Below are positions 39,027-59,767 of a DNA stretch of 64,000 nt, in pieces. Every line of letters begins with the position of its first letter. Position 1 is the first letter of the stretch. Under the pieces are notes generated by a model that saw only the letters and a program-made list of their open reading frames with translations, had not been told where the DNA came from and did not search any database. Location: assembly GCA_934096035.1 (NCBI GenBank), contig CAKOKX010000002.1, positions 51,480 through 115,479 of the forward strand. Direction: 5' to 3'. The position numbers and the translations under genes were made by a program. This DNA comes from an uncultured Bacilli bacterium (GTDB taxonomy: Bacteria > Bacillota_I > Bacilli_A > RF39 > UBA660).

Positions 39027-40289
39027 TTAATTTATAATAATCGGTAAACTTTTTGTTCCATCACCACTTACATAAGTTACTGATGTATCAAGATTAAAAA
39101 CGGGTCTAACTCCATACGAATCCATACCTACAAAACTATTAGTAACATTTCCATCCCTATGTATTCCAAACATCATCTCAGAATCATCTGTATATGGAGT
39201 TAATGTCCAATCATCAAAACCCATGTACATCCAATTTATTGTTATTGCTATTCTATAATCTTTTGTTGAATCACTACTATTATATCCTACTAATGTCCAT
39301 GCACTAGGACCTGCAGCATAATAATAATCTGATACATACATTAATCCTATTTTTGCATCATATGTTGTACTTGAGGCACTACTTCCTACTTCATATTGAT
39401 ATGCTGTTTTTGGTACTGAAGTTCCTATATTAGCCCATGAGCCGCCACCAACTTTCCATGTTGTTGTAATTATTTTTGATGCCCAAGTAGTTCCTATATT
39501 ATTGATGAAACTTGTATTTAAGTTTGTTTTATTTAATTGACTTACACTCCAATCATTTGTTGAAGGACTGCTATTTAAATGATAAATATCAATATCTGTT
39601 AAAGCACCTTGATATTTTGAAGGTGGAGAATTATGATAAGAAAATTCTCCTGTGGTTCCTAATAAATTTCTATTTGCATAATCATATTTGATTAATTTTA
39701 CTTTGCCATCTATTACACCAATTATTCTATATAAATTATCTATTGGACATGGGTTTGTTGTTGAACCAAAGCATACAAAGTTATTTACTTGGTCGCTTGC
39801 TCCTGCATATCTATAACTATTATCACCAGCTCCATTAGATAAACTTGATTTATGATAATAAATATTATTTTGCCCTTGTGTCCCAGTATATTGAGCAATT
39901 ACACAATCTTTTAATGTTTTGTCACCACAAACCTCTGATAAAACTAAAAGTTTATCAAAATAAACATAACACTTATCTGATAAATTACCTAAAACTATCA
40001 CTGCTTTCTTTGTATCATCCCAACTTATTTTTGAACCATTTTCACATCTCGATAATTCTGAATTAAACTTATAGCCTTCTGTTGGCCATTTACTCTGAGT
40101 AACTGTTTTATAATCTCCAGCTCCTGCTGTTTGTTCTAAATTCATGGATATTCCTTTAGTTATTTTAGTTTTATTATTAACACTATCTTCAACATAATTA
40201 TTTGTAGTTTTAAAATAATTAAAACTTGTAAGAAATGTAATTAATAAAACTAAAGTAATTATTGATAATATAATATATTTTTTCTTCAT
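39027..40289 (-). CDS. hypothetical secreted or membrane-anchored protein
   Basis: 420 aa. N-terminal TM/signal (YIILSIITLVLLITFLTS), Ser/Thr/Asn/Tyr/Trp-rich, ends ...GVRPVFNLDTSVTYVSGDGTKSLPIIIN. No family named with confidence. Confidence 0.55.
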   Translation of the reverse strand: MKKKYIILSIITLVLLITFLTSFNYFKTTNNYVEDSVNNKTKITKGISMNLEQTAGAGDYKTVTQSKWPTEGYKFNSELSRCENGSKISWDDTKKAVIVLGNLSDKCYVYFDKLLVLSEVCGDKTLKDCVIAQYTGTQGQNNIYYHKSSLSNGAGDNSYRYAGASDQVNNFVCFGSTTNPCPIDNLYRIIGVIDGKVKLIKYDYANRNLLGTTGEFSYHNSPPSKYQGALTDIDIYHLNSSPSTNDWSVSQLNKTNLNTSFINNIGTTWASKIITTTWKVGGGSWANIGTSVPKTAYQYEVGSSASSTTYDAKIGLMYVSDYYYAAGPSAWTLVGYNSSDSTKDYRIAITINWMYMGFDDWTLTPYTDDSEMMFGIHRDGNVTNSFVGMDSYGVRPVFNLDTSVTYVSGDGTKSLPIIIN

Positions 40290-40410: not shown

Positions 40411-42894
40411 TCATTCTTCTAGAATTTTAAAATCTTTTACATCACCTTTATCAAAATCATAATCAATCCATATAATAGCATTTTTAGTACCAGATAAATT
40501 CCAAACATACCAACTTAAATACATTTTATCATTTATAATAATTGGTTCTACATAATAATTATAATAATCATAATTAATATCTTTTTTTAAATTATCTAAA
40601 AAATTTAATTCATAATCATAATTATTTAATTCTTTATAGTATTTTGAATTATCAGCATTCATAAAATCCAGCATTGGTTTAAGTAAAAAAGCAAACTTTT
40701 TATCACTTAAATAATCTTCCTTAATATTTTTCTTATATAAATCAATTAATACATCTAATAAATAACCTGTATGTTTATAAGTTATATCTAAAGATGTTGT
40801 ATCACTTAAAGCATTAAGAACATTCATAACAATTTTTTCATCATTAAATCCATCATATAAAACTTTAACAAAATAATTAGTATCATCATAATACCATTTA
40901 TTTAAAGCACTTGAACCATAAATATACTCTAAAGCCTCAAGATAATATGTACCAAAACTATAAGCACTAACATTTTTAGTAAAATACTTTGAAGCAAATA
41001 TTTCAGCTCCTGCTTCTGTAATATAATTAGTATATGCAAAACTTACATACTCACAATTATCTGGTATATTTAAAATAGCATCATATACATCAACTTTATT
41101 ATCACATCTATATAAAGTTGTACTTTGTTTATTATTAAAAGAAAAATCTACGAAATGTATAAGTTCATGATATAAAACACTATCTTTATCCGTTACTAAA
41201 TCAATTCTTGTATCAAAGTCTTGATAAGTTCCAAAGGCTTTTCCATCCTGTAAAATATCAGCTTTGTTAATATTCAAATAACCAAGTTTATGTAAAAAAT
41301 AGAATTCATCTAAATATTCTTTCTTATCCACTACAATTTCAAATATATCATAAACCTCTTTTTTATAATCAAGTAGCATATTATTATTTTCTACAATATA
41401 AGCATATTTTTTTAATAATTCTTCATTTTTATTTATTTTTAATTCTATCTTTTCTAAATCATATTTGTCTATAATATCATCTAAATCTATGTCATAAAAA
41501 ACATCAAAATTAATCTTTTTTATCTTATTATTTCCAAGTTTTATTATATATGTTTTATATAATGTTTCTAAAATTATATGTTCATCATTTATTTTAATAT
41601 TTACAAAAATCTCATCTATAATTTCTTTTCCATCTTTATATAAATAATGTTCATTTGCATTTTTAAATACATCACAATAACCATTATTATAGCAATTTAT
41701 ATTATAAAACCCTTTCGCTATTTCATTTAAATTATTATCCAAAAAATAATATTTAAAGCTTTGATAGTCATAACCACTATATACATTATTAGTTAAATAA
41801 CTTATATTTATATTTTCATTAATATTTAATTGTTTTAAAGATTTATCATAATATTTATAAGTTGTACCATCACCAAGTAAATCGAAAACTGCTGCTACTT
41901 TAATATAATCACCTTCTAAAGTAATTTCTCCTCCACTAATTTCTTTATCTTTATAAAAAAGTATATAATTATCTGTATCAATGCCTAAAATAGCATCATC
42001 AAATAGAATTTTATAAGCATACATACATTTATCAACAACAATTTTGTCGTTATTATCTTTTAATTTATAACCAGTTTGGCATTTATCTTTAGACATTTTA
42101 TATTTATTATTTATTTTAGTATTATCTTTATAAATTTTATCTCCATCTATATAATAAATAATATTATTATAAGTAAATATATTATATTCTGCATAATTAG
42201 TATTATCATAAGTAATACCTTCATATAAAACTTCTTTAGTTCTAGTATCAATTAAATAACCTTTATTATTTTTAGTAAATCTAAAATAAGTCATTCCTTC
42301 ATCGTTATTATATAAAGAAGAATTTTCAAAATTACTCCATAACACTTTTTTATTAATTAAATCAACAACTATACTTTTACTTTTCTTTTCATAAGATTCA
42401 ATAATTAATAGATCATTGCCAAATTCTGCAAAATATTCAAAATTTCCAGTAAAATCTAATACATATATTTTATTTAAATTATTATCATAAATAGCATTAT
42501 CCACCAAAACATATTTATTATCATTAGCAACTTTTATTTGAGTTCCATTTATTAAAATTTCTCCATCTTTATTTATTATTTTTTTGATATTTTTATTAGT
42601 TACAATTATAAACCTTTTATCAAGTATTTCATAATTAGTAAACTCTTCAGTATACTCACTAATTATATTATCATTAAAATCATATATAACTAATTTATTA
42701 CCTTCATCTTTAACATAAAAATTTTCTCCAACACTAACATTAATATTATTTATTACAGTAACACTTTCAAATCCTAATACTTTTTCTTCATTTATACCCC
42801 TTTTGTCATTAAAAACAATATAAATAGTCACAAAACTCCATATTACGAATAAAACTAAAGTACTAATTAACAATCTCTTTTTATTCTTTTTCAT
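40411..42894 (-). CDS. large membrane-anchored hypothetical protein with an HExxH motif
   Basis: 827 aa from the ATG at 42894 (MKKNKKRLLISTLVLFVIWSFVTIYIV). The N-terminal half has repetitive beta-strand-like segments. LYHELIHFVDF appears in the C-terminal half. Confidence 0.6.
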   Translation of the reverse strand: MKKNKKRLLISTLVLFVIWSFVTIYIVFNDKRGINEEKVLGFESVTVINNINVSVGENFYVKDEGNKLVIYDFNDNIISEYTEEFTNYEILDKRFIIVTNKNIKKIINKDGEILINGTQIKVANDNKYVLVDNAIYDNNLNKIYVLDFTGNFEYFAEFGNDLLIIESYEKKSKSIVVDLINKKVLWSNFENSSLYNNDEGMTYFRFTKNNKGYLIDTRTKEVLYEGITYDNTNYAEYNIFTYNNIIYYIDGDKIYKDNTKINNKYKMSKDKCQTGYKLKDNNDKIVVDKCMYAYKILFDDAILGIDTDNYILFYKDKEISGGEITLEGDYIKVAAVFDLLGDGTTYKYYDKSLKQLNINENINISYLTNNVYSGYDYQSFKYYFLDNNLNEIAKGFYNINCYNNGYCDVFKNANEHYLYKDGKEIIDEIFVNIKINDEHIILETLYKTYIIKLGNNKIKKINFDVFYDIDLDDIIDKYDLEKIELKINKNEELLKKYAYIVENNNMLLDYKKEVYDIFEIVVDKKEYLDEFYFLHKLGYLNINKADILQDGKAFGTYQDFDTRIDLVTDKDSVLYHELIHFVDFSFNNKQSTTLYRCDNKVDVYDAILNIPDNCEYVSFAYTNYITEAGAEIFASKYFTKNVSAYSFGTYYLEALEYIYGSSALNKWYYDDTNYFVKVLYDGFNDEKIVMNVLNALSDTTSLDITYKHTGYLLDVLIDLYKKNIKEDYLSDKKFAFLLKPMLDFMNADNSKYYKELNNYDYELNFLDNLKKDINYDYYNYYVEPIIINDKMYLSWYVWNLSGTKNAIIWIDYDFDKGDVKDFKILEE

Positions 42895-42895
42895 A

Positions 42896-43123
42896 TTATT
42901 TATTCCCCATATAATAAAGTCTTTCATTTAAATTATTTGCCACAAAATCTATTTCATCATATTCTTCATCATCTAAAAAAGAATCATCTAAATATCTATC
43001 AATAAGAAGTAATACTTCAGCTAAAGTCTTACATTTTGTTACATCAATATTACATTTATTTAATACACTAATTTCATAATCATTAATAACTATATTATCC
43101 CCATATTTTTTAAGTTCATCCAT
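42896..43123 (-). CDS. small acidic hypothetical protein
   Basis: 75 aa. Its stop lies 1 nt before the start of the 827-aa gene. Confidence 0.45.
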   Translation of the reverse strand: MDELKKYGDNIVINDYEISVLNKCNIDVTKCKTLAEVLLLIDRYLDDSFLDDEEYDEIDFVANNLNERLYYMGNK

Positions 43124-43386: not shown

Positions 43387-43457
43387 AAAATATCAAAGCA
43401 TTTAATTATCCAAAAAATATGCCAAAAAAATAAAGACCATTAAGGTCTTCATATACA

Positions 43458-43917: not shown

Positions 43918-43959
43918 ATTATATTACTAATATTAGCACTTGTCAATAGCAAGTGCTAA
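43918..43959 (-). promoter_or_regulatory. promoter overlapped by a CIRCE-like (HrcA) operator
   Basis: TTAGCACTT-N9-AAGTGCTAA (43933-43959) compared with the consensus TTAGCACTC-N9-GAGTGCTAA. On the minus strand, TTGACA (43941-46, inside the N9 spacer), a 17 nt spacer, then TATAAT (43918-23). Confidence 0.75.
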
Positions 43960-43974
43960 TATTTCACAAAAATT

Positions 43975-46371
43975 TCACTTTTGAATACAATAACCAAAAT
44001 TAGAACTTAATTTTTTTGATGAACTACAAATTGGTGGATCAAATACCCTCTGGCAAGAATAATATGAACCTATTTTAAATTTAGTATTTAATGTCCAACC
44101 ACTATCACAACAATAATTAGTTCCTTCAACAATAACTTTATTACCCCATGCACTTTTAGGACAAGGTACTTCTAAATTTTTATCAGCAATATTATATAAT
44201 GCTAAATCATTATAAACACATTTATATTTATCTGTTGTAATATCATAAAATTTATATCCGCCATAACACTCTGATAATTCTGTATTATAATTTATTTTTT
44301 CTGAATTACTATAATTCTTACAAACCGCATGCCCAATTGCAGACACAGAACATTCATTATACTTATTACATGCTTTTACCCAAAAATAGGTATCTCCGGT
44401 TCGATTAAGGTTAGTACGCATTCCTATACATCTCGCTGGCATAGGATCTCCTTTCTTCAATCCAGAACAACCAGGAATCCAAGAAGAAGAACTCACACTT
44501 GGTGCAGTTTTATTGGTAGTAGCAGCATACCACGTTCCTATAGAAAGCGCAATAAAATTAGTATTTGCTGATAAAAAATATCTTCCAGTTGAACAATCAT
44601 ATGAAACATCATGCTCTGCAGAGGCAGGAATGTCTCTATCAATTTGCACTCTATAAGGCCCACCTTTTCCAATATTACCAACTGCATCTTTTGCAAAAAC
44701 ATAATAATATGCATATTCATTCCAAGTAATATCTCTACTAACATTCAAAGTCTTCGTAGTATTAACATCAATCCATTTTTGTGGTGTTTCATAACCTGTA
44801 ACAGCATATGCAACAATTCCTGATTTACTATCTGTTATTTTCGCAGATAAAGTGTAATCTTCTCAAATAGTTTTATATGTTAAATCAGTAGATGTTAATG
44901 TTATAACTGGGGCATCATCATCCAAATTTATCATATATTTACTTATTCCTGAACATGTATTATTAACAGTACAAGCTTTAACGTAAACATAAATTCCATA
45001 TTGAGTTTTCTTTGCAGTCATACTTGTTCCAGTACTTGAAAGTTTTGATGGATTAGTTCCATAATAATATATCAAATTTTGTGAACCTTGATTCGTACTT
45101 TTCCATGATAATGTATAATCTTTGTCATGATATGATCCACTTACTTGACCATCTGATGCACTTATTACTGGATTTGTCGGGATTGTATCTACATTTATTT
45201 TATAGCTACTTATTCCTGAACACAAATTACTTTCTCTTGTACACGCTTTTACATACATTATTACATTATATTGATCTTTCTTAGCTACTACTGATGTACC
45301 TTTATTTGTCATTTTACTCTTATCTGTTCCATAATAATATATTAATTCTTGAGTTCCATTATATGTACTTTTCCATGATAATATATAATCTTTACTATGA
45401 AAATTTCCACTTGTTATTCCATCTGATGCACTTATTATTGGATTTTCAGGCTTTGCATCTATCGTAGAAATCGTCATTACTTTTTCATTTTCATTTCCTG
45501 CTATATCTTTTACACATATTTTATAATTACCATTTGATTTAATAGTTATTTTATTATGTGTATTATAACCAGTACACTTAGCTGTTTCTCCAACTATTAC
45601 ATAACCTCCAACTCCAGACCCTAATCCATCACTTGCTACTATTTCTATTTCTTTACTTTCACTCCAATTTGTATCATATTTTATTTCATTTATTATCGGA
45701 GCTTTTTTATCTATATTTACTATTTGTGATGCCTCACTTACTTCATTATCTTTTGTTATTTTAGCTGTATAATTTATATTGGCTATCAAGTTTACATTTG
45801 TTTTTATAGTATCTTCTGTTGATGATATTCCCGTATTACTTTTCCAACTTATTTCATATCCAGATTCTTTTGTTATTCTCTTTCCATTTACAAATTTTAA
45901 CCCTATTGTTATATCATCTTTAAACCATTGTTCATTTTTTATATCATTACAATTATTTCCTACGACTTGACATATCACTAAGTTTTTTCTTCTTATATAT
46001 TCATTACATGTTGTACCATTTTTTCCTACATTACTTCCAAATTTTGCTTTATATTCTCCATCTTCCCAGACTAAATCTATTATATAACAATTCATTGATT
46101 CTCTAGTTACTGGATCATATATATCTGTTTCATCATCTGGTTTTATTAATCCAATCTTTATTAAGTCTTCTACACTTACTGCAGTGACATTTGTTTCATT
46201 AGCATATTCTATTGCTTTTGTTTCTAAATATGTTATTAAATTACTCTTTTCTTTTTCTAAAACACTATTTCTTATATTTATAAACACTGCTACTGATGCA
46301 GATATTAATATTGATAGTACTACCAACACTGCAATAAGCTCTATTAATGTAAATCCTTTCATATTTTTCAT
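43975..46371 (-). pseudogene. large modular type IV pilin-like protein (copy A), one reading frame interrupted by a single in-frame TGA
   Basis: N-terminus MKNMKG|FTLIELIAVLVVLSIL is a prepilin cleavage/methylation motif. Track ORFs 44863..46371 and 43975..44748 are in the same frame. Across the TGA (44863-65) the sequence reads ...TYKTI*EDYTLSAKITDSKSGIVAYAVTGYETPQKWIDVNTTKTLNVSRD..., which is colinear with copy B. Confidence 0.75.
45056..46371 (-). repeat. ~1.3 kb direct repeat, copy A (offset 3535 bp from copy B)
   Basis: Proteins are identical for aa 5-439. Antisense-frame track ORFs are also identical (45779..45970 = 49314..49505; 45081..45284 = the C-terminal part of 48508..48819; the starts of 46184.. 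and 49719..). Identity in a second frame argues for near-identity at the DNA level. I saw 2 nt differences, in codon 4. Confidence 0.85.
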
Positions 46372-46377
46372 GAATCA

Positions 46378-47235
46378 TTACTCCTCTGATACAGAACCAC
46401 TACTAATTGTAATACATCTCGTATAATTACCTAAATATTGTATTTCACTTTCATTTCCTGCCATATCAGTTGCATAGCTCCAAACATTATAAGTTTTATC
46501 ACAAGCTAAATCTTCTATTCTATCCTTAAAATCACTTTTATTAGGAGCTTCATTATTTTCTGAAAAATAATAATATTTTTTATTCAAAAAGTAATTATCT
46601 TCATATGTAACTAAAACTGAATCTTTCAAATTACTACTTTTATAAATCGGAGCTTCAACATCAACCATCACTTTAGTTTCTTTTACATAAGAAACATCAT
46701 CAAAATTAATCATTACATTTAATGTTGTATTAATATTATCAGTTATTTCCAATTCATTACTAACACTATTTACAGAACCATCAATACTATACCATTCTAC
46801 TGAATTTATATCTTTTTCTTTATAATATGAATTTCCATCATTTTTTAATTTAACTTTAATAGTACCGCCATTCTTATTCCATTCATTTAATTTAAAATTA
46901 TCACTAGTTATTAACTCAATAATAGGTCTTTTTGCTAACTCTTTCGATTTATCACAATCTGTTTCCTTTTTACTTATTTTATCATTATCAATAACATAAA
47001 TATCGCATATATTTTCATTTGTATTGGTTATATAACCATTTTCTAATAAAGCTTCTATACTAACTTCAGTTTCTAAAGTATCATTATAATAATCTTGAAA
47101 ATATTTACTTAACTCAGTTTTTTCTTTATTATTTTCACTTGGTTTATGATCAATATTTTTATATATTACTAACCCAATTATAACTCCCACAATAATGGCC
47201 CCACAAACAACAATTATTTTATTTTTCGTTTTCAT
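46378..47235 (-). CDS. membrane-anchored protein with a pilin-head-like segment and an Ig-like domain
   Basis: 285 aa. N-terminal TM without the G|FTLxE motif. SIEALLENGYITNTNENICDIYVIDND resembles SVEDLIKIGLIKPDDETDIYDP of the neighbouring pilin-like proteins. Also has VDVEAPIY and ATDMAGNES Ig-like motifs. Confidence 0.6.
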   Translation of the reverse strand: MKTKNKIIVVCGAIIVGVIIGLVIYKNIDHKPSENNKEKTELSKYFQDYYNDTLETEVSIEALLENGYITNTNENICDIYVIDNDKISKKETDCDKSKELAKRPIIELITSDNFKLNEWNKNGGTIKVKLKNDGNSYYKEKDINSVEWYSIDGSVNSVSNELEITDNINTTLNVMINFDDVSYVKETKVMVDVEAPIYKSSNLKDSVLVTYEDNYFLNKKYYYFSENNEAPNKSDFKDRIEDLACDKTYNVWSYATDMAGNESEIQYLGNYTRCITISSGSVSEE

Positions 47236-47266
47236 ATTTTCCTCCTCACATTATATTTTAACTACA

Positions 47267-49906
47267 CTAACCAGTACAATACCCATAATTTGCACTTAGT
47301 TTAGCGCCTCCAAAACAATCTGGAATTCCATAATTTTTTTCACAAGCATAATAATTACCCATTTTAAATTTTTTATTTAAAGTATAACCTTCTGGACAAC
47401 AATAATTAGTATTTGGTACAGGTACATATTTACGAGCCCAAGCATTTTCCGCACAAGTAACCTCTAAATTCTTATCTGATATATTTTGAGCATGAGACCA
47501 TCTATCCATACACATATATTTATCAGTATTAATATCATATGTAAGCCATCCATTATAACAATGCCCCATATCAGAATCATATGTTATTCCTTTTGGGTTT
47601 TGACGATTATTACATACTGCATGACCTATCGGAGTAATAGTACATTCATTATAGGTATTACATGCTTTTACCCAGACATAAGTATCACCATATCGATTAA
47701 GACTTATTCTAGAACCAGAACAATAACCATTATATTTAGTAATTCCACTACAACCAACAGACCAGCCACTTGCATTTAAAGAAGGTGTGTTTTTGTTTGT
47801 AGAAGTATAATAATATATATTATTTGTTACAGCAGCTAATATTTTTGCACCAGCAAATATTTTCCCACTAGAACAATTATAATATACTTCATGATCAACA
47901 ATATTAGGATAATCCCTATCAATACTAACAAATTGTTCTTTTTTACTTATATTTCCCATCGCATCTTTTGCAAAAACGTAATATGTACCAAATTCCTTCC
48001 ATGTAAAACTACGACTAACATCTAAAGTTTTTGTATTTTTAACTGTTATCCATTTTTGTGGTGTTTCATAACCAGTAACTGCATAAGCTACTATACCTGA
48101 CTGACTATCCGTTATTTTTGCTGTTAATTTAAAATAGTTTCTATAATCAGAGTCAATAGTGAATCCTATATTTGGAGCTTCAGTATCAACATTTAACAAA
48201 TATTTGCTTATTCCTGAACATGTTTTATTAACGGTACAAGCTTTAACATAAACATAAATGCCATATCGACTCATATCAACATTTAAAGATGTTCCAGTAC
48301 TTGAAAGTTTAGATGAATCAAATCCATAATAATATGTTAATTTTTGAGATCCTTTATTAGTACTTTTCCATGTTAACGTATAATTCTTACTATGATATTT
48401 ACCACTTGCTATTCCATCTGATGCGCTTATTACTGGATTTGTCGGTTTTGTATCTACATTTATTTTATAGCTACTTATTCCCGAACACAAATTACTTTCT
48501 TTAGTACATGCCTTTACATACATTATTACATTATATTGTTCTTTCTTGGCACCTACTGAGGTTCCTTTATTTGTCATTTTCGTTTTATCTGTTCCATAAT
48601 AATATATCAAATTTTGTGAACCTTGATTCGTACTTTTCCATGATAATGTATAATCTTTGTCATGATATGATCCACTTACTTGACCATCTGATGCACTTAT
48701 TACTGGATTTGTCGGGATTGTATCTACATTTATTTTATAGCTACTTATTCCTGAACACAAATTACTTTCTCTTGTACACGCTTTTACATACATTATTACA
48801 TTATATTGATCTTTCTTAGCTACTACTGATGTACCTTTATTTGTCATTTTACTCTTATCTGTTCCATAATAATATATTAATTCTTGAGTTCCATTATATG
48901 TACTTTTCCATGATAATATATAATCTTTACTATGAAAATTTCCACTTGTTATTCCATCTGATGCACTTATTATTGGATTTTCAGGCTTTGCATCTATCGT
49001 AGAAATCGTCATTACTTTTTCATTTTCATTTCCTGCTATATCTTTTACACATATTTTATAATTACCATTTGATTTAATAGTTATTTTATTATGTGTATTA
49101 TAACCAGTACACTTAGCTGTTTCTCCAACTATTACATAACCTCCAACTCCAGACCCTAATCCATCACTTGCTACTATTTCTATTTCTTTACTTTCACTCC
49201 AATTTGTATCATATTTTATTTCATTTATTATCGGAGCTTTTTTATCTATATTTACTATTTGTGATGCCTCACTTACTTCATTATCTTTTGTTATTTTAGC
49301 TGTATAATTTATATTGGCTATCAAGTTTACATTTGTTTTTATAGTATCTTCTGTTGATGATATTCCCGTATTACTTTTCCAACTTATTTCATATCCAGAT
49401 TCTTTTGTTATTCTCTTTCCATTTACAAATTTTAACCCTATTGTTATATCATCTTTAAACCATTGTTCATTTTTTATATCATTACAATTATTTCCTACGA
49501 CTTGACATATCACTAAGTTTTTTCTTCTTATATATTCATTACATGTTGTACCATTTTTTCCTACATTACTTCCAAATTTTGCTTTATATTCTCCATCTTC
49601 CCAGACTAAATCTATTATATAACAATTCATTGATTCTCTAGTTACTGGATCATATATATCTGTTTCATCATCTGGTTTTATTAATCCAATCTTTATTAAG
49701 TCTTCTACACTTACTGCAGTGACATTTGTTTCATTAGCATATTCTATTGCTTTTGTTTCTAAATATGTTATTAAATTACTCTTTTCTTTTTCTAAAACAC
49801 TATTTCTTATATTTATAAACACTGCTACTGATGCAGATATTAATATTGATAGTACTACCAACACTGCAATAAGCTCTATTAATGTAAATCCTTTTCTATT
49901 TTTCAT
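47267..49906 (-). CDS. large modular type IV pilin-like protein (copy B, intact, 879 aa)
   Basis: MKNRKG|FTLIELIAVLVVLSIL prepilin signal. After the pilin-like head come Ig-like modules (KDIAGNENE, AKDAMGNISK), three 90-aa tandem repeats, and a ~200-aa Cys-rich C-terminal module. Confidence 0.8.
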   Translation of the reverse strand: MKNRKGFTLIELIAVLVVLSILISASVAVFINIRNSVLEKEKSNLITYLETKAIEYANETNVTAVSVEDLIKIGLIKPDDETDIYDPVTRESMNCYIIDLVWEDGEYKAKFGSNVGKNGTTCNEYIRRKNLVICQVVGNNCNDIKNEQWFKDDITIGLKFVNGKRITKESGYEISWKSNTGISSTEDTIKTNVNLIANINYTAKITKDNEVSEASQIVNIDKKAPIINEIKYDTNWSESKEIEIVASDGLGSGVGGYVIVGETAKCTGYNTHNKITIKSNGNYKICVKDIAGNENEKVMTISTIDAKPENPIISASDGITSGNFHSKDYILSWKSTYNGTQELIYYYGTDKSKMTNKGTSVVAKKDQYNVIMYVKACTRESNLCSGISSYKINVDTIPTNPVISASDGQVSGSYHDKDYTLSWKSTNQGSQNLIYYYGTDKTKMTNKGTSVGAKKEQYNVIMYVKACTKESNLCSGISSYKINVDTKPTNPVISASDGIASGKYHSKNYTLTWKSTNKGSQKLTYYYGFDSSKLSSTGTSLNVDMSRYGIYVYVKACTVNKTCSGISKYLLNVDTEAPNIGFTIDSDYRNYFKLTAKITDSQSGIVAYAVTGYETPQKWITVKNTKTLDVSRSFTWKEFGTYYVFAKDAMGNISKKEQFVSIDRDYPNIVDHEVYYNCSSGKIFAGAKILAAVTNNIYYYTSTNKNTPSLNASGWSVGCSGITKYNGYCSGSRISLNRYGDTYVWVKACNTYNECTITPIGHAVCNNRQNPKGITYDSDMGHCYNGWLTYDINTDKYMCMDRWSHAQNISDKNLEVTCAENAWARKYVPVPNTNYCCPEGYTLNKKFKMGNYYACEKNYGIPDCFGGAKLSANYGYCTG
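48176..48979 (-). repeat. three in-frame 270-bp (90-aa) tandem repeats inside copy B
   Basis: Units start NPIISASDGITSGNFHSKDYILSWKST..., NPVISASDGQVSGSYHDKDYTLSWKST... and NPVISASDGIASGKYHSKNYTLTWKST... Copy A (44911-45444) has only two units, and its second is a hybrid of units 2 and 3. Confidence 0.85.
48591..49906 (-). repeat. ~1.3 kb direct repeat, copy B
   Basis: Same evidence as copy A. Identity breaks at 48590/48591, which corresponds to 45055/45056 in copy A. Confidence 0.85.
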
Positions 49907-49909
49907 AAC

Positions 49910-50746
49910 TTACCTCCGATATATTAAAAAATCAACCATTTTAATTTTAGACACTTTAGATTTTATCTTTCCCTTAGAATATTCTTCGAAAAAAATCAAA
50001 TCACTCAAAGATACATTTTCATCAACAAGAACTTCTATAACTACTTTATAAAAATTACTAACATTAATTAAGGTACAATTGGAATAATATATTCCTTCTC
50101 CCTCTTTTAAATTATTTTCAATATTTCTAATAAGCATTTTACTTTGATCATTTTGACCTTTTAATAAAATTACATTATCAATTAATATTTTTAAGCCTTT
50201 AATAAAAATCACTATTGCCATAAATAAGGATCCTAATAAATCAAAAACTGGTATAAAAGCTCCAAGAACAACAAAAAAGATTGAGATAAAAACAAGTAAA
50301 AAATCATAATAATTTTCATGAGCAATTTCCATTACCATCTCACTTTGAATTTTTTTTGCACCATCAAATAATTTATTAGCCCATATTACTAATGATAATA
50401 TAATTATCAAAATGGGCAATAAAATTTTCAAATTAACAAACTCATAATTTATAAAAAATGATTTTCCAAAAATAACGAATCCTAAAATACATAGAATAAA
50501 GCCAAAGAAAGCCATTGAAGTCATAGGCAATGTACCATAACCAAATGGTTCTTTTTTACTACTTCGTCTACCTCTAATCAAAGATGCATTAAAACTTATT
50601 AAATTGCTTGAAAGATTACATAAAGAATAATATCCACTAGTAATTAATGTATAAGAACAAAATATTGTTCCACAATAAATTTTAGCCAAAGATATTAATG
50701 AACTAATAAAAATATCAATTAATGTAATACCTCTTTCTTCTTTCAT
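49910..50746 (-). CDS. cation diffusion facilitator (CDF)-like membrane protein with degenerate metal-site residues
   Basis: 278 aa. CDF-like layout (…KKEPFGYGTLPMTS… and C-terminal YKVVIEVLVDENVS), but the TM2 position reads TSGYYSLCN instead of the usual Asp/His-rich motif. The stop lies inside the RBS of pilin-like copy B. Confidence 0.45.
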   Translation of the reverse strand: MKEERGITLIDIFISSLISLAKIYCGTIFCSYTLITSGYYSLCNLSSNLISFNASLIRGRRSSKKEPFGYGTLPMTSMAFFGFILCILGFVIFGKSFFINYEFVNLKILLPILIIILSLVIWANKLFDGAKKIQSEMVMEIAHENYYDFLLVFISIFFVVLGAFIPVFDLLGSLFMAIVIFIKGLKILIDNVILLKGQNDQSKMLIRNIENNLKEGEGIYYSNCTLINVSNFYKVVIEVLVDENVSLSDLIFFEEYSKGKIKSKVSKIKMVDFLIYRR

Positions 50747-51378: not shown

Positions 51379-51455
51379 GGTGCAATTGGTGAAGTGGTTA
51401 ACACGCCGGATTGTGGCTCCGGTATGCAAGGGTTCGATTCCCTTATTGTGCCCCA
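51379..51455 (+). tRNA. tRNA-His (anticodon GTG) with G-1 and an encoded CCA
   Basis: Extra 5' G opposite C73. D loop AGTGGTTAA. Anticodon arm CCGGA-TTGTGGC-TCCGG. T arm AAGGG-TTCGATT-CCCTT. Acceptor has two G:T wobble pairs. Confidence 0.85.
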
Positions 51456-51556
51456 TTGTGAAATCTGCTCGAACTTTTCGAGTTATGATAAATGACTAAT
51501 TCAGAAATGGATTAGTTTTTTTGTTATTAAAAACTATCCTAACTTAAAAAGAAAGG

Positions 51557-51838
51557 ATGGAAACAATGGTAAATATTATTAAAGAAGAACTTTCATTAGA
51601 AGAATCATTAAAAAAGAAAATTGAGTTTATATGTGATTTTACTAATACTAAACCAACTATTATTAAGGGTAATATTAGAAAAGTTGATAGAACTAACTTA
51701 ATTTATATTGAGCCACATAGAATAATAATTAATAACATAACATTTCTTGTGTTTAATTATTCTAATGAAATATTTATTGAAAACTTATCTAATAAGATTA
51801 AATTATCAGAATTAGAAGATTATTTAAAAACAATCTAA
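51557..51838 (+). CDS. small hypothetical protein (93 aa)
   Basis: RBS AAAGAAAGG before the ATG. No family recognised. Confidence 0.45.
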   Translation: METMVNIIKEELSLEESLKKKIEFICDFTNTKPTIIKGNIRKVDRTNLIYIEPHRIIINNITFLVFNYSNEIFIENLSNKIKLSELEDYLKTI

Positions 51839-51985
51839 ATACTACTTATTCCCTAAACAGTGAATTGACAAATCAAAAAAAAGTGATATTATAAATAACC
51901 AATGAAAGAGGTATTCTCTAGAAAGAGAGGTACATCTATGATAAAATATATACATAAACAAAAAATTTATAATATTGAATATTGT

Positions 51986-52037
51986 GAGGAGTCAGTAGTA
52001 TTTAGACTTTATTAAATACTATTGGCTCCTCTTTTTT
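51986..52037 (+). promoter_or_regulatory. terminator-like hairpin immediately 5' of the recombinase RBS
   Basis: GAGGAGTCAGTAGTATTTA-gacttta-TTAAATACTATTGGCTCCTC plus T6, ending 21 nt before the ATG. A promoter precedes it (TTGACA 51865-70, 16 nt spacer, TGaTATTAT 51887-92). A 25-codon ORF (51938-52015, MIKYIHKQKIYNIEYCEESVVFRLY) runs into the stem. Confidence 0.55.
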
Positions 52038-52052
52038 AGTAAAAGGAGTTGA

Positions 52053-53912
<1,860 letters not shown>

Positions 53913-54037
53913 AATGCGTGGCACGTTATGAAATTACAAAGTAATTTTGTAAGTGGTGATAGCAATTTAAAAATTAATACTTTATGAACTTTAACAATTA
54001 CGAAGTTTTGGTTATTGTGAAATAAAGTAAACGGTTT

Positions 54038-54092
54038 CTAAGGTGGTAAACCTTAGCTTCCATATCTTGTCTCTGACAAGATATATAGGAAG
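54038..54092 (+). promoter_or_regulatory. candidate oriT (two adjacent hairpins) upstream of the relaxase gene
   Basis: CTAAGG-tggtaaa-CCTTAG (54038-54056), then CTTCC-ATATCTTGTC-tct-GACAAGATAT-ata-GGAAG (54057-54092), which contains a perfect 10-bp inverted repeat. Confidence 0.45.
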
Positions 54093-54159
54093 TTATGAAT
54101 AATGACAAAGCCACTTTCGTGCCATTTTCAATATTCATAATTTAGGGGGTGTTAAAAAT

Positions 54160-55485
54160 ATGGAATTATCTTATTCACTACATTTAGGTAATGATAAAAA
54201 CAAATCTATTAAAGCAAGACAAGAAGCAAAGAATACTCCATCAGGTACTACATCAAAAAATAATAATGCTATTCAAAATGTTAAGCAATTAGGTAAAGTT
54301 AATCATCATAATTTAAGACAATATTATAATAATCAAGAACTAATTAAAACTATTAAAGGTTCAAATGATATTACTAAAGATGTTAAAGAATTATATTTAG
54401 ATTTATTTGAAGAATCTAGACTAAAATATAATAAAAAACAAACAAGAGATGATAGAACTATTGATAACTACTTTAATAAAATAAGTAATGATACAAAACA
54501 TGACCTTGCTTGTGAGATAGTTATTGAACTTGGAAACATGAAATATTGGGATGAAAAAAGCCTAGAATACAAATATCAAATGATACAAGTATTCGAACAA
54601 CAATTAGAAGATATACAAGAAATAGTTCCAGACTTTTATATAGCAAATGCTACTATACATTTTGATGAACATTCTCCTCATATGCATATAGTTGGAGTTC
54701 CAGTAAAAGAAAATTGTAAAACAGGTTTATCAAGACAAGTTGGTAAAACTTCCATCTTCACAAAAGAATCACTAGTAGTTATTCAAGATAAAATGAGAGA
54801 AAGATGTATTAATGAATTTAATATTGTTTATGGATTAGATTCTAAACTTAAAGAAAAAGAAAAAGGTAAAAATAGAGATATTACTTCATATGAAAGAAAA
54901 CTCTTTAATGAAAGAGTTAAAGGACTTAAACAAGAAATATCTAATCTTCAAGATGAAGTATCTGATTTAGAAGATAATAAAGAATCTATCAATAAACAAA
55001 TTACTAAACTTAATAAAGATAAAGATGATATAAACGATGAAATTGATAAAAAGAAAAAACTTAATAATAAAATTATTATTAAATCTAAAAATCAATTATT
55101 AGACGAAAATAAAAAATTAAAAGAAGAAAATGAACATTTAAAGAGTATCAATTATCAAACTGAAAATAGATACAATGATTTAAAAGAAAGAACAGATTAT
55201 CTTATTTATCATTTAAATAAAATAATTAAAAAACTTCCAGAATTTATACAAAATCTAATTTATAGATTATTTAATTACAATAATATAAATCTTAATTTTT
55301 TTAAACAACAATATGATCCTGAAGTTATAAGAAAGAGAGAAAAATCATTTAAAAGATTTAATCTATTTAATAAAAAAGAAATTGAAAAAGTAACTAAACA
55401 TATTAATGATGAAATGGATGAGTATACTGAAGAATTTTATAACGATAAAAAAGATAAAGAAAAAGACGATGGCTTATCATTATAA
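54160..55485 (+). CDS. MobV/Pre-family mobilization relaxase
   Basis: HFDEHSPHMHIVGVPV (HxDE...PHxH motif), followed by a long Lys/Glu/Asn-rich coiled-coil C-terminus. Confidence 0.85.
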   Translation: MELSYSLHLGNDKNKSIKARQEAKNTPSGTTSKNNNAIQNVKQLGKVNHHNLRQYYNNQELIKTIKGSNDITKDVKELYLDLFEESRLKYNKKQTRDDRTIDNYFNKISNDTKHDLACEIVIELGNMKYWDEKSLEYKYQMIQVFEQQLEDIQEIVPDFYIANATIHFDEHSPHMHIVGVPVKENCKTGLSRQVGKTSIFTKESLVVIQDKMRERCINEFNIVYGLDSKLKEKEKGKNRDITSYERKLFNERVKGLKQEISNLQDEVSDLEDNKESINKQITKLNKDKDDINDEIDKKKKLNNKIIIKSKNQLLDENKKLKEENEHLKSINYQTENRYNDLKERTDYLIYHLNKIIKKLPEFIQNLIYRLFNYNNINLNFFKQQYDPEVIRKREKSFKRFNLFNKKEIEKVTKHINDEMDEYTEEFYNDKKDKEKDDGLSL

Positions 55486-55500
55486 GTCATCGTTCTTTTT
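55465..55500 (+). terminator. terminator between the convergent relaxase and deaminase genes
   Basis: ACGATG-(16 nt)-CATCGT followed by TCTTTTT. Confidence 0.5.
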
Positions 55501-55505
55501 AAGTG

Positions 55506-55913
55506 TTAATCACTTTTTCCCCACCAATCAGGCAATAATTCACTCATTTTTTTTGTTTCATAAGTTTTATCGTCAACTAGTATTTCAATATTTTTTGAAT
55601 CTTTACCTAATTGCATTATTAATTCTCTACACGCTCCACAAGGAGCTCCACCAATTTTTCCATTAGGCATAATACAAACGATTTTAGATATTTCATCTTC
55701 ACCATTAGTTATCATTGTATGAATGGCATTTCTTTCAGCACATATACCTAAAGTAGAACAAGTATCAATACACACACCTGTATAAACATTACCATTTTTA
55801 GATTGAATTGCTGCACTAACCATTCCTGCTTTAATATGATTAGATATTTGTCTTGGATTTAATACATCTTTTGCTCTTACTATTAATAAGTCCCATATTT
55901 CCTTGTCTTGCAT
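55506..55913 (-). CDS. small cytidine-deaminase-fold zinc enzyme (Cdd / blasticidin-S-deaminase-like)
   Basis: 135 aa. CAERNAI and PCGACRE zinc motifs. The C-terminal ELLPDWWGK resembles the tail of the small tetrameric deaminases. Confidence 0.8.
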   Translation of the reverse strand: MQDKEIWDLLIVRAKDVLNPRQISNHIKAGMVSAAIQSKNGNVYTGVCIDTCSTLGICAERNAIHTMITNGEDEISKIVCIMPNGKIGGAPCGACRELIMQLGKDSKNIEILVDDKTYETKKMSELLPDWWGKSD

Positions 55914-56806
55914 AAATCAATCACCTCAGCCCATTTTTCAATATATTCTTTAGGAATATTCAAACTTCCTGAACCTATACCTATATCATTATTTGGTTTT
56001 TTATCTCCATGAAAATCGCTACCACCACTAATAAATAAATTATTCTTTTTTGCATAATCAAGAAGAATATTTATTCTATTATCACTTTCAGCGGATGGAT
56101 GAAAACATTCAATACCATCAAGTTTTACTTCTTTTCTCAATTCATCAATAAATCCAATTGTATCTTCAAACTTATATTCAAATGGATGTGCTAAAAAAAC
56201 TAATCCACCAGCTTCATGAATTTTATCTGCAACATCTCTGAATTTTGGAGTTGGGAATTTTTTCTTTTCATCAAGATAGAAAACACTATCTGGATTATCT
56301 AATCCAATTCTTCTAAAATCATTAAAAGAATTAGCATAACTACCTAATTTTTCAACATTTTCAGGATACTTAATTATTTCATAAAACAAATAAACGATAA
56401 AGAAATCTGTTACTGGAATATCTTTTTTAATATTATCTAAATTATATTTTAATCCAGCTCTCTCACACATTTCTAAAGAAGCTTTTTTAGCACTTTCAAA
56501 CTTTTCAGTTAGTATCTCTTTTGAGAAAAACTTATCTGACCAATCATTTATTATTTTTGGATTTTTAATGTTATATGCTAAAAACTCTATTCTCTTGCCA
56601 TTATCTAATGTTGCATTCATTTCAGCACCAATTACTATTTTTCCTGTAAAAATATTTTTCTTTAATGCCTCATCTTCGTATTGTCTACATGTATTATGAT
56701 CTGTTAAGGAAATATATTCTAGATGTTTTTCTTCACATTTTTTTAATACTTCTTCCAATGGTTTATCACCATCAGAATACAATGAATGCATATGCATATC
56801 TACCAT
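55883..56806 (-). CDS. PHP-domain metal-dependent phosphoesterase
   Basis: MHMHSLYSDG (HxH), LTDHN, FLAHP, ECFHP, GGSDFHG. Overlaps the deaminase gene by 31 nt. Confidence 0.82.
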   Translation of the reverse strand: MVDMHMHSLYSDGDKPLEEVLKKCEEKHLEYISLTDHNTCRQYEDEALKKNIFTGKIVIGAEMNATLDNGKRIEFLAYNIKNPKIINDWSDKFFSKEILTEKFESAKKASLEMCERAGLKYNLDNIKKDIPVTDFFIVYLFYEIIKYPENVEKLGSYANSFNDFRRIGLDNPDSVFYLDEKKKFPTPKFRDVADKIHEAGGLVFLAHPFEYKFEDTIGFIDELRKEVKLDGIECFHPSAESDNRINILLDYAKKNNLFISGGSDFHGDKKPNNDIGIGSGSLNIPKEYIEKWAEVIDLCKTRKYGTY

Positions 56807-56931
56807 TTAAACCACCACCTACAATAATTATACCATTATTTTTGTTGTTTTTATAAAAATTACATAAAATGAATGAAATATTGACGATAATATGTTATAA
56901 TAATTGTCAATGAAAGCAAAGAACTAAATAA

Positions 56932-56983
56932 GGGCTAGTAAAGACTTATTGATACAAAAATAGGTTTACTAGGCTCTTTTTTT
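56932..56983 (+). promoter_or_regulatory. terminator-like hairpin in the kinase gene leader
   Basis: GGGCTAGTAAAGACTTATT-gatacaaa-AATAGGTTTACTAGGCTC (about 16 bp with a bulge) plus T7, ending 17 nt before the ATG at 57001. The only RBS (GAGGTG) lies after it. Confidence 0.55.
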
Positions 56984-57000
56984 AAAAATGAGGTGTTAAA

Positions 57001-58983
57001 ATGAATTTTTTAGGTTCAACGATAAATGGATATAGTTTTTTAGAAGTCGTGGGTTCTGGCAGTTTTGGAACTGTTTATAAAGTACAAAAAGATGATAATA
57101 TCTATGCTGCAAAGGTATTTGCTGAATCTTTTGTATTAAGTGAATATAAGAATGATAGAAATAGAATAACTAATGAAATTGATGCGTTAAAGATTGCAGA
57201 TAGTGAAAATTTAGTAAAATACTATGATGATTTTGAATATACATCAGAGTCAGGTTTAAATACACATATAATTATAATGGAATTTGTTACTGGCAAAAAG
57301 ATTACTGATATTATTGATGAAATTAGTGATAAAGATAAATTAATTGATTTATTTAAGAATATTTTGAATGCTGTAAATCAACTTCATAATTTTGATATTA
57401 TCCACAGGGATTTAAAGCCTGATAATATATTAATAATGCAAGATGGAACAATAAAAATTATTGATTACGGACTTGCTAAATTAATTGATTTTTCGTCAAT
57501 TACTAGAACTGGTGATCGTGTTGGTAGTCCAATGTTTATGTCACCAGAACAAATTGTTGATAGTAAACATATAACAAAGAGAAGTGATATATACTCATTA
57601 GGTGTAATTTTATATTTAATGTTTACGAAATCATATCCTTATGAAGTTACTTCACTCGAAGAACTGGTTTATAAAATTATTAATGTGCCAATAATTCCTC
57701 CAAGCGAAAAAAATAAAGAAATACCACAATATATTGAAAAAATAATATATAAAGCATTATCAAAAAAGGATTACAATAGATATCAAACTATAGAAGATTT
57801 TTATCAAGCTTTCGATAATATTGAAGGTTTAAATAATATAACATCTTCTAAATATTATGCTTGGTTAATTAATGAAAAAAAAGTATATGAAACATATGTT
57901 GAAAACAATAATTTAAAATGTATTTTTCCATTACATTTAAAATATTCACAAAAAGGATTATATAATCATATGCTAAAAAATACAGATGATGTGATTATTG
58001 ACCCATCTACTCAACGATTCAGTTACGCCACTTTTTCAAAATATACAGGTCTAGTTAATTTATCTTATAGTCCTAAAACTGGTGTAATTGATTTAGATTA
58101 TTTAATAAATAAAAACAATCGCCAAGAATATATAAAAAATTGGTATAATGAAGTATCGGAGTTTAATAAAGTTATTTTGCCATATCATTATATTAGTAAT
58201 ACGAATTATAAAGCAGATAAAATTGAAGAGTGGATAAAAGTTAATGTTCAATTAATAAATGAAAGTATCGATTATATAGAAGAAGCCGGAAAAAAACTAG
58301 AGACATATGCAATGATATCAATAAACCTTAATAATTTGATGTATGAAAAAGAAAGATTGTTATCTTATTATGTTAATTTAAAAGTTGATAAATATATTGT
58401 ACAAATTTCTGATATGAAAAATCCAAATGTTCAAAATATTGCAACATATGTTGAATTTATAAAATTGCTACAAGTATCAACTGGTAAAGATGTAATTGCA
58501 TTAAAAGTTCCCGTAGCACTTGGACTATATTTAATATCAATTGGGATACATGGTTTTTCATGTGGAATCTCAAATTTAGAGTTTTTTGATGAAAATTACA
58601 TCAAAGATGAAACAGATCCATTTAATTTATATGCAAAATATTATTTTCCACAACTACTAACATTAATGTCATATTATCGTGCTGATGCTTATTCTTTACG
58701 AGATATTTACAATGAATTAAATAAATGCAATTGTAGTTATTGCGATGGAAGAGATTTTGTTGAAATAGCTGCTGAAAAAGACTATAAAATTAAATTACAT
58801 TTCCTTGAACAAATGAAAAAAGAATTTAAAAATTTGAATGACATCGTTGATGAAAATGAAAAAAAGTGTTATTATGTTAATAGAATAGAAAAGGCAATTA
58901 ATAACTTTGAAAGTTTGAAAAATAATGGTTTAATAAAGAAATCGGATATCAATGATATACTTTCTATTCTCAAAAGAATATAA
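57001..58983 (+). CDS. Ser/Thr protein kinase fused to a ~390-aa C-terminal domain with TGT-like hallmarks
   Basis: Kinase motifs: GSGSFGTVYKV, AAKVF (Lys), HRDLKPDNILI, DYGLAK, SPMFMSPE. The C-terminal part alternates beta and alpha segments, contains GIHGFSCG, and ends with CNCSYC-x18-H (KIKLHFLEQ). Confidence 0.8.
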   Translation: MNFLGSTINGYSFLEVVGSGSFGTVYKVQKDDNIYAAKVFAESFVLSEYKNDRNRITNEIDALKIADSENLVKYYDDFEYTSESGLNTHIIIMEFVTGKKITDIIDEISDKDKLIDLFKNILNAVNQLHNFDIIHRDLKPDNILIMQDGTIKIIDYGLAKLIDFSSITRTGDRVGSPMFMSPEQIVDSKHITKRSDIYSLGVILYLMFTKSYPYEVTSLEELVYKIINVPIIPPSEKNKEIPQYIEKIIYKALSKKDYNRYQTIEDFYQAFDNIEGLNNITSSKYYAWLINEKKVYETYVENNNLKCIFPLHLKYSQKGLYNHMLKNTDDVIIDPSTQRFSYATFSKYTGLVNLSYSPKTGVIDLDYLINKNNRQEYIKNWYNEVSEFNKVILPYHYISNTNYKADKIEEWIKVNVQLINESIDYIEEAGKKLETYAMISINLNNLMYEKERLLSYYVNLKVDKYIVQISDMKNPNVQNIATYVEFIKLLQVSTGKDVIALKVPVALGLYLISIGIHGFSCGISNLEFFDENYIKDETDPFNLYAKYYFPQLLTLMSYYRADAYSLRDIYNELNKCNCSYCDGRDFVEIAAEKDYKIKLHFLEQMKKEFKNLNDIVDENEKKCYYVNRIEKAINNFESLKNNGLIKKSDINDILSILKRI

Positions 58984-58998
58984 GTAAGGTGATATTAT

Positions 58999-59634: not shown

Positions 59635-59650
59635 TCAATTTCACATTTAT

Positions 59651-59681
59651 AAGTAGCGCGAATTATCGATTGCTACTTTTT
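59651..59681 (+). terminator. intrinsic terminator after the kinase/nuclease-like pair
   Basis: AAGTAGC-(14 nt)-GCTACTT followed by TTTT. Confidence 0.6.
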
Positions 59682-59733
59682 AATTTTTATGTTAAACTAT
59701 TATTAGTGATTAGTTGTTTATCAACTTTTGCTT

Positions 59734-59767
59734 TAGGGTTTCAGATAACCTTTGTTATCGCCCCATT
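59734..59767 (+). repeat. degenerate tRNA-His 3'-end-like sequence (candidate att remnant)
   Basis: TAGGGTTTCAGATAACCTTTGTTATCGCCCCATT compared with the tRNA-His 3' end AAGGGTTCGATTCCCTTATTGTGCCCCATT (51428-51457). GCCCCATT is shared exactly, and I count about 25 matched positions by hand alignment with gaps. Confidence 0.45.

Follow-up and report, generated by a model that had tools for sequence, protein, structure and literature searches.

Does a long identical 5' block joined to divergent 3' ends mark a locus at which binding domains are exchanged? The question is raised by two tandem paralogous genes, here called A and B, in a stretch of 64,000 nucleotides (nt) from an uncultured Bacilli bacterium (RF39, UBA660; assembly GCA_934096035.1, contig CAKOKX010000002.1, positions 51,480 to 115,479 of the forward strand), hereafter the window. 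The host has a GC content of 26% and is frequent in human gut metagenomes. Both genes encode large proteins that begin like type IV pilins and end in a cysteine (Cys)-rich module, and a third gene, here the middle gene, lies between them. A first-pass annotation of the window proposed a tip-adhesin variation locus in which recombination across the 5' module exchanges the C-terminal binding domains. In this work, the locus was compared among related assemblies, and its products were analyzed by profile, family and structure searches. The comparison shows gene conversion that homogenises the 5' modules and leaves the 3' ends in place. The reading that we favor, as probable, is that the locus encodes a tandem modular pilin-like pair with a conversion-homogenised base, which would present two heads at one filament position.

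Modular architecture of the two proteins

Both open reading frames (ORFs) begin with MKN[R/M]KG, followed across the predicted cleavage point by FTLIELIAVLVVL. The start of gene A (MKNRKG, then FTLIELIAVLVVLSILISASVAVF) has the features of a class III prepilin signal: a short leader ending in Gly, Phe+1, about 20 hydrophobic residues and Glu+5. The class III signals that had been reported for both genes were confirmed by two profiles, Pfam N_methyl (PF07963; 32.4 bits for A and 29.4 bits for B against a cut-off of 21.2) and TIGR02532 (28.4 and 26.3 bits against 16.3). Residues G6, F7, T8 and E11, which include Gly-1, Phe+1 and Glu+5, are invariant in 13 family members with 29-69% identity to gene A. 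With 13 family members as input, AlphaFold2 modeled amino acids (aa) 1-311 of gene A at a predicted local distance difference test (pLDDT) score of 90, with a 52-residue helix (9-60), beta strands at 64-114 forming a small head, and two beta-sandwiches; a pilin-type N-terminal helix and small beta head are thereby predicted. Foldseek matches to this model were tandem immunoglobulin (Ig)/FN3 domains, and no pilin-specific match was returned because the tandem Ig domains dominate the search. ComGC, GspG/H, MshA and geopilin gave weak sequence matches at the N-terminus only, and the ComGC equivalog NF040999 (about 84 model positions, cut-off 75 bits) scored 32.2 and 32.5 bits, over residues 5-83 only.

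The Ig/FN3-like beta-sandwiches begin at about residue 130. The 90-aa repeats noticed earlier proved to be real 270-nt tandem repeats, three in gene A and two in gene B (aa 305-483); the array in gene A falls into the repeat families D1, D2 and D4. By protein alignment, gene A has two, three or four such repeats among strains (789, 879 or 970 aa). The C-terminal ends (217 aa in A, 221 aa in B) contain 14 Cys each, for which 7 disulfides are predicted, and show identities of about 53% at the protein level and 70-77% at the DNA level, in line with the description of moderately similar Cys-rich tips of about 200 aa. The tip structure prediction that had been recommended gave an all-beta model of the C-terminal 306 residues (pLDDT 77), comprising an Ig-like domain, a second sandwich and the Cys-rich part. 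Given the signal, the predicted helix and head, the Ig-like modules, the repeats and the Cys-rich end, the initial description of modular pilin-like proteins holds; A and B fit the definition of a modular pilin as an N-terminal pilin module to which one or more further structural modules, of kinds also found outside pili, are fused.

When 1.84 billion representatives were searched exhaustively without a profile, 818 clusters (50% identity) of the family were identified at E <= 1e-3 and 130 at E <= 1e-30. Residues 1-300 are the part shared by most matches, beyond which their C-terminal modules differ (Filamin or Flg_new, for example), and member lengths range from about 300 up to 1,531 aa. More distant proteins share the N-terminal prepilin region only and carry LRR_5, dockerin, DUF6273, SASA or DUF285 cargo. 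The Cys-rich end module recurred in a single other representative cluster (P0135). Among the matches listed in a scan for the motif KGFTL[VIT]EL[IL], the nearest relative was L005 (32% identity), the rest being generic pilins from many phyla. Modular pilins are widespread (PMC8179133); the survey of Raynaud et al. 2021 comprised more than 1,200 proteins in 264 architectures, the largest of 860 aa (InterPro; PMC8179133). At 879 aa, remarked on as unusually large for a pilin, gene A slightly exceeds the survey maximum; members of the same family reach 1,531 aa. A and B are an unusually large pair of modular pilin-like genes from a large unannotated family, of a protein type that is itself already known. 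A pilin lead from another gut clade, TANB77 (PMC11680825), was discarded as an unrelated Tad-type cluster in Clostridia.

Concerted evolution of the 5' modules and conservation of the ends

A base-by-base comparison verified the claim that codons 5-439 are identical at the DNA level at an offset of 3535 base pairs (bp): the identity is exact over 1,304 bp, and the breakpoints, whose mapping had been recommended, are given in Table 1. The sole differences between A and B in the first 1,316 nt are at nt 11-12 (codon 4, R versus M). The two copies are in direct orientation, and the sequences downstream of A and B are unrelated to each other.

The locus was taken from nine other assemblies (L001-L004, L033-L036 and L039). 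Mismatches were counted in eight assemblies with the order A-middle-B, the window included, which represent seven distinct haplotypes, L033 being equal to the window. L039 has the same order and was left out of these counts because of its split genes; L002, from a more divergent lineage, has a single 970-aa gene with an A-type end, together with the middle gene. Over nt 1-1020, the mismatches between A and B within a genome number 2, 2, 5, 1, 4, 2, 22 and 9 in the eight assemblies, and those between orthologues from different strains number 8-74. Between the window and L001, for example, 67 sites differ in A and 68 in B, and the A of each genome still matches its own B; the 5' module of A is closest to its own B in six of the seven independent strains. 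The homogenised tract ends at different positions depending on the strain (nt 894, 1063, 1193, 1217 or 1316). The near-identity of A and B within genomes, the greater divergence between strains and the varying tract ends together show concerted evolution by gene conversion. As read from these sequences, repeated conversion keeps the first 0.9-1.3 kb, i.e. the pilin base and proximal stalk, near-identical within each genome.

The 3' ends behave differently. Slot A holds an A-type end and slot B a B-type end in all eight two-gene assemblies (seven haplotypes). The end modules of the window (47270-47920 and 43978-44640) were compared with those of L001, L003, L035 and L036, and show 3-21 differences per 600 nt between strains. 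Their synonymous divergence (dS) is 0.05-0.09, versus 0.2-0.4 in most other parts of the locus (cation-efflux gene, 0.42-0.45; middle gene, 0.17-0.19; most of the pilin base and stalk, 0.2-0.3); similarly low values, 0.06-0.08, were obtained for the second Ig-like domain (aa 129-220). With ratios of nonsynonymous to synonymous divergence (dN/dS) of 0.14-0.18 for B and 0.43-0.54 for A, both end modules are under purifying selection. The low dS of the tips suggests a recent sweep or the exchange of tip-coding DNA across strains. By this comparison, the distal modules are old, distinct and individually conserved alleles fixed in their own slots, and the combination of a homogenised 5' part with slot-fixed, conserved tips implies that recombination homogenises the base and stalk and does not swap tips.

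A possible role at a filament tip

According to the reading that we favor, the products of the two tandem paralogues are modular, type-IV-pilin-like surface proteins, each built from a pilin module (class III signal peptide, long hydrophobic N-terminal helix and small beta head), a rigid Ig/FN3-like stalk with two to four 90-aa repeats and a distal beta-rich module with 14 Cys; the stalk becomes longer or shorter as 270-nt repeats are gained or lost. A prepilin peptidase whose gene lies elsewhere would cleave after Gly6, and the identical pilin bases would let A or B dock at the same position of one type-4 filament, most likely the tip, with the middle membrane protein possibly taking part as a partner. 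Two alternative binding heads would be displayed in this way, much as in the PilA-PilB-PilC tip complex of Streptococcus sanguinis. Adhesion and incorporation into a pilus may be proposed for A and B by this analogy.

In S. sanguinis, the modular pilins PilB, with a von Willebrand factor A (vWA) module, and PilC, with a lectin module, are found with PilA in the tip complex of type IV pili (PMC8179133, PMC9934059); the two modular pilins and the small partner form a complex that presents different adhesive modules (PMC9934059). The likenesses to A and B include a monoderm host, a short-leader class III signal with Glu5, bulky non-pilin modules on a small pilin module, and two different modular pilins encoded together with a small partner, so that two heads are predicted. 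Unlike PilB and PilC, A and B share an identical pilin base and stalk, and their cargo is a long Ig/FN3 stalk with an unannotated Cys-rich module rather than a vWA or lectin module. Furthermore, the partner gene here is without a class III signal, and the genes lie outside a pil locus with no machinery seen beside them. The type IVb pilins CofB and TcpB of enterotoxigenic Escherichia coli and Vibrio cholerae (PMC8179133) likewise have a pilin module followed by beta-repeat or beta-sandwich domains that lack sequence signatures. They are tip-located trimers of about 500 aa encoded inside the pilus operons of diderm bacteria (PMC8179133), and they have no sequence similarity to A and B past the signal.

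Several observations weigh against placing A and B in a filament. No gene for a prepilin peptidase, a GspE/PilB-type ATPase, a PilC-type platform protein or a short major pilin was found in the 64-kb window, in the flanks of L001-L004 or beside the distant family members L040 and L041; the related loci fetched were likewise free of prepilin peptidase, ATPase and platform genes to a distance of 10 kb. A search for ATPases with a GspE signature or Walker A motif was equally negative in the window and in the flanks, which were the parts covered, of L001-L004, of the Bacilli-type loci L005-L008, L011, L019, L020, L023 and L024, and of the family members L040 and L041. Minor pilins of tip complexes are usually encoded with their machinery. 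The middle protein, being without a class III signal, is not a canonical partner pilin. Searches of A and B against Pfam, NCBIfam, PDB sequences and PHROG returned nothing beyond the N-terminal motif, and the fold search of the end module gave only generic tandem FN3/Ig matches (template modeling scores of 0.17-0.32) and no specific one; in view of an end module with no informative sequence or fold match, the term 'adhesin' is an analogy. Finally, the perfect identity of A and B is perhaps slightly overstated, because short-read metagenome assembly may collapse a 1.3-kb near-identical repeat to one consensus that is then used twice. Another candidate, the short N_methyl protein P0363, was considered as a lead to pilus genes of the same genome and set aside, since the gene content of its locus differs and it apparently belongs to another organism.

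The same observations could be explained by surface display without a pilus, the class III signal and helix serving mainly as a peptidase-processed anchor or export signal for many different stalked surface proteins. We regard this as possible, though unlikely. Archaeal substrate-binding proteins with class III signals are a comparable case. In all loci examined, the genes stand alone among housekeeping genes and no machinery is seen within 10 kb. Diverse cargo, including that of enzyme-like or scaffold type (SASA, dockerin, LRR_5, DUF285 and DUF6273), is found in the family and in related N_methyl proteins, and members of 300-1,500 aa would be bulky filament subunits. However, Glu+5 and the Gly/Phe cleavage context are invariant, a constraint to be expected if the proteins assemble into filaments but not if they are simply anchored, the head region retains a ComGC/GspG-like motif, unlinked pilin genes are common, and the known bacterial modular pilins are filament-borne (PMC8179133).

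More tentative still is a generalization to the whole lineage, which we consider rather doubtful. In low-GC gut Bacilli of this kind, the class III signal with a base of about 300 aa ('pilin + two Ig') might constitute a general display chassis for effector modules, and conversion would hold two chassis identical here, with two different Cys-rich heads competing for a single docking site or sharing it. The basis for this idea is the presence of at least 800 clusters (50% identity), products of up to about 1,500 aa and the location of the genes away from pilus operons.

The proposed exchange of the tips

The exchange of C-terminal binding domains across the 5' module, as cassette or antigenic variation, was the original explanation of the locus, and it now appears very unlikely. 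What speaks for it is the long identical 5' block with divergent 3' ends, the evident recombination between copies, the single gene with an A-type end in the divergent lineage L002 and the existence of truncated B alleles. These are outweighed by the fixation of tip type by slot in the eight two-gene assemblies, with tips that are the least variable parts and under purifying selection, and by the layout of the locus. Because the repeats are direct, a crossover would delete the interval (the 3' part of A, the middle gene and the 5' part of B) and could not swap the tips. Nor could a conversion tract be closed 3' of the tips, where a homology block is lacking: the ends are 70-77% identical in DNA, and the downstream sequences differ. 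Neither inverted repeats nor a dedicated recombinase are present. The inverted repeats at the locus are short, AT-rich and imperfect, none standing above the AT-rich background, and the only nearby recombinase, of the serine type, is in an 8.3-kb mobile element absent from L001, the one relative aligned there. A shufflon or invertase mechanism was rejected on account of the direct orientation, the lack of meaningful inverted repeats and the location of the recombinase in an unrelated element. The strain comparison that had been suggested as a check therefore has two outcomes: conversion between the 5' parts of the copies was seen, and no recombinant tip forms were found among the assemblies compared. 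Of the two processes invoked for an identical 5' part with a variable 3' part, gene conversion of the 5' part stands, and cassette exchange of the 3' part is not supported.

Two known cases of recombining surface genes clarify the difference. In Neisseria, silent promoterless pilS cassettes donate hypervariable 3' sequence to one expressed gene, pilE. The locus described here resembles this system in the non-reciprocal recombination between pilin gene copies with a conserved 5' sequence; unlike in Neisseria, each copy is a complete gene, and it is the 5' part that conversion makes uniform, with 3' parts that are stable and conserved. Neither copy is a silent cassette, since each has its own start codon and ribosome-binding site. 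Silent start-less donors were not found, both copies having a start, a Shine-Dalgarno sequence and a full signal peptide, nor was a C-terminus made hypervariable by mosaic donation, the ends being the most conserved parts and slot-specific. The babA and babB genes of Helicobacter pylori encode outer-membrane proteins at unlinked sites, and their functional chimeras alter binding. They are likewise paralogous surface genes with segments made near-identical by intragenomic gene conversion and a divergent ligand-binding segment; unlike for babA and babB, no chimeras were seen here among the strains compared.

Premature stop in gene B and quality of the assemblies

The first-pass annotation described two giant genes, which is correct for gene A, intact at 879 aa, and not for gene B, in which a TGA at codon 503 had been overlooked. 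The ORFs called for gene B are of 502 aa (44863-46371) and a 257-aa remnant (43975-44748). Codon 503 is AGG (Arg) in the three relatives compared, and the gene is intact at 798 aa in L001, L003, L004, L034, L035 and L036. With this stop, gene B is predicted to give a 502-aa stalk without the end module in the window strain. An alternative code (TGA for Trp or Gly) was rejected, as the standard code is evident in the window: TGA ends 9 of 54 ORFs, TGG is the codon for each of the 153 Trp residues counted, and the other long ORFs are uninterrupted. The TGA is unlikely to be a read error, because the L033 contig, from an independent ENA sample, carries this haplotype without a single difference in A, the middle gene or B. 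We interpret the stop as a recent nonsense mutation, by which only the A tip would be displayed in the window strain.

Readthrough or recoding of the TGA, by which full-length B would still be made, seems very improbable. The 295 codons that follow the TGA are open and near-identical to intact orthologues (15-18 differences in the last 600 nt), and a second sample has the TGA allele too; the downstream frame would be left equally intact by a nonsense mutation that arose very recently, the code of the window is standard, and relatives have Arg (AGG) at codon 503 rather than Trp, Gly or selenocysteine.

Truncated B-like products of 415 and 442 aa occur in other samples and may partly reflect sequencing errors. 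L039 was not counted as an independent loss of B, because other genes are split there as well and it may be an error-prone long-read assembly. Family members split into two overlapping ORFs were observed in L040 (1908-3859; 375 and 287 aa), L041 (2342-4742; 275 and 534 aa) and L039 (7001-9398; 415 and 392 aa), which reflects either frequent frameshifts (phase variation or decay) or assembly errors provoked by repeats.

That the perfect 5' identity is itself an artefact, a collapsed repeat written twice, is highly improbable even though most contigs were assembled from short metagenome reads, a process that collapses repeats exceeding the k-mer: A/B differences are resolved inside the block (9 in L036, 22 in L035), two copies with 8 differences per 1,020 nt are present on L039, which from its generic name and split genes we infer to be a long-read assembly, the two copies have differing, consistently assembled flanks in all eight two-gene assemblies, and the variants, about 65, that A and B share in a strain-specific manner do not require exact identity and cannot arise from repeat collapse. 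Given the resolved differences in L035 and L036, the co-variation of A and B and the two copies on L039, the main conclusion does not depend on whether collapse occurred.

Gene order and genomic neighborhood

The cation-efflux gene, A, the middle gene, B and an HSP20 gene are all on the minus strand and tightly packed (Table 1). The spacing between the cation-efflux gene and gene A is the same in every related locus that includes the former, and the two genes are probably in one transcript. A Shine-Dalgarno sequence precedes each of A, the middle gene and B (GGAGG upstream of the gene A ATG), and the gaps between these neighbors are 3-31 nt, which is consistent with one operon. The HSP20 gene follows gene B and is preceded by its own promoter, a perfect sigma-70 consensus at 43918-43946 (TTGACA, 17 nt, TATAAT) directly downstream of gene B; a terminator-like hairpin is located at 43430-43452, after HSP20.

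Table 1. Coordinates of the locus and its features in the window
Feature	Residues	Position	Strand	Description
Gene A		47267..49906	-	879-aa modular pilin-like protein; from ORF and translation
Gene A, class III signal and alpha-1 helix	1-60			
Gene A, pilin module	1-128	49523-49906	-	
Gene A, two Ig-like domains	129-304	48995-49522	-	
Gene A, three 90-aa repeats	305-573	48188-48994	-	
Gene A, further Ig-like domain	574-662	47921-48187	-	
Gene A, Cys-rich end module	663-879	47270-47920	-	
270-nt tandem repeat array, gene A		48323..48980	-	Tandem Repeats Finder: period 270, 2.4 copies, 84% matches
Gene B		43975..46371	-	Paralogue of gene A; 799 codons including stop, TGA-interrupted; from translation
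Gene B, pilin and Ig base				As in A
Gene B, Ig-like domain	484-577			
Gene B, B-type Cys-rich end	578-798	43978-44640	-	
Premature TGA, gene B codon 503		44863..44865	-	Context ATT TGA GAA; AGG (Arg) in relatives
Identical block, copy 1 (gene B)		45056..46359	-	1,304 bp, codons 5-439; base-by-base comparison, offset 3535
Identical block, copy 2 (gene A)		48591..49894	-	1,304 bp; base-by-base comparison, offset 3535
Middle gene		46378..47235	-	285 aa; N-terminal transmembrane helix
Cation-efflux family gene		49910..50746	-	Pfam Cation_efflux; ends 3 nt before the start of gene A

The 285-aa middle protein had been described as containing a segment like a pilin head, and an 85-aa match to the pilin helix/head region (28% identity, E = 5e-4) bears this out. 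Its transmembrane helix is a plain one that lacks the G-F-T-L-x-E motif, and its C-terminal stretch (VDVEAP...TDMAGNE) reads by eye as Ig-like; searches against Pfam and NCBIfam gave sub-threshold, chance-level matches only. The middle gene lies 3' of gene A in every strain, including the single-gene strain L002, and its exact sequence is present on 71 contigs.

Downstream of HSP20, and syntenic in all strains, are two genes for membrane-anchored proteins without convincing annotation, of 420 aa (39027-40289; weak DUF6273) and 838 aa (40411-42927). The length of the DUF6273-like product varies among strains from 380 to 466 aa, and the proteins P0324, P0329 and P0406 of other organisms have DUF6273 joined directly to an N_methyl prepilin signal. 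The whole 39-50 kb stretch may be a surface-protein island. Elsewhere in the window, a GH25 muramidase (20817-22031) has an N-terminal membrane helix and an Ig-like surface domain with a DKEAP motif, as in the stalk domains of the pilin-like proteins.

Relative to L001, the window has an insertion of about 8.3 kb (51458-59759) directly 3' of tRNA-His (51380-51455). It contains genes for a large serine recombinase (52059-53912), a Mob_Pre relaxase (54160-55485), cytidine-deaminase-like and PHP-like proteins (identified by eye), a protein of 660 aa that has a Ser/Thr kinase domain and one of 211 aa; it looks like an integrated mobilizable element, possibly with defense-type cargo. Another local tandem duplication is seen in two adjacent paralogous DUF1016/YhcG PDDEXK-nuclease genes (22074-22985 and 22996-23781), which have very similar C-terminal halves, the second being shorter at the N-terminus. 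A 716-aa HNH-domain gene lies between the genes for monogalactosyldiacylglycerol synthase and an AAA protein in L001-L004, L034 and L035 (3475-5656 in L001), and is absent from the window (site 62561-62568) and L036.

Significance

What is new here is a large modular pilin-like pair with a concerted base, and not a mechanism of variation. Modular pilins show how simple filaments acquire binding functions, and very few of them have been studied, none in uncultured gut Bacilli. The family to which A and B belong is large and has no curated annotation past a 25-residue motif. For annotation, the lesson of the locus is that cassette switching need not be behind divergent 3' ends that follow a long identical 5' block; the pattern seen among the strains was the opposite one. 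The locus also represents a natural experiment, in which two heads sit on the same identical base, one head has been lost in one strain, and the stalks have two, three or four repeats. If the tentative chassis idea were true, the family would constitute an undescribed display system, in which a common assembly interface selects for concerted evolution of the pilin part. Since this bacterium is often met with in human gut metagenomes, binding to the host or to glycans is a candidate function of its surface proteins.

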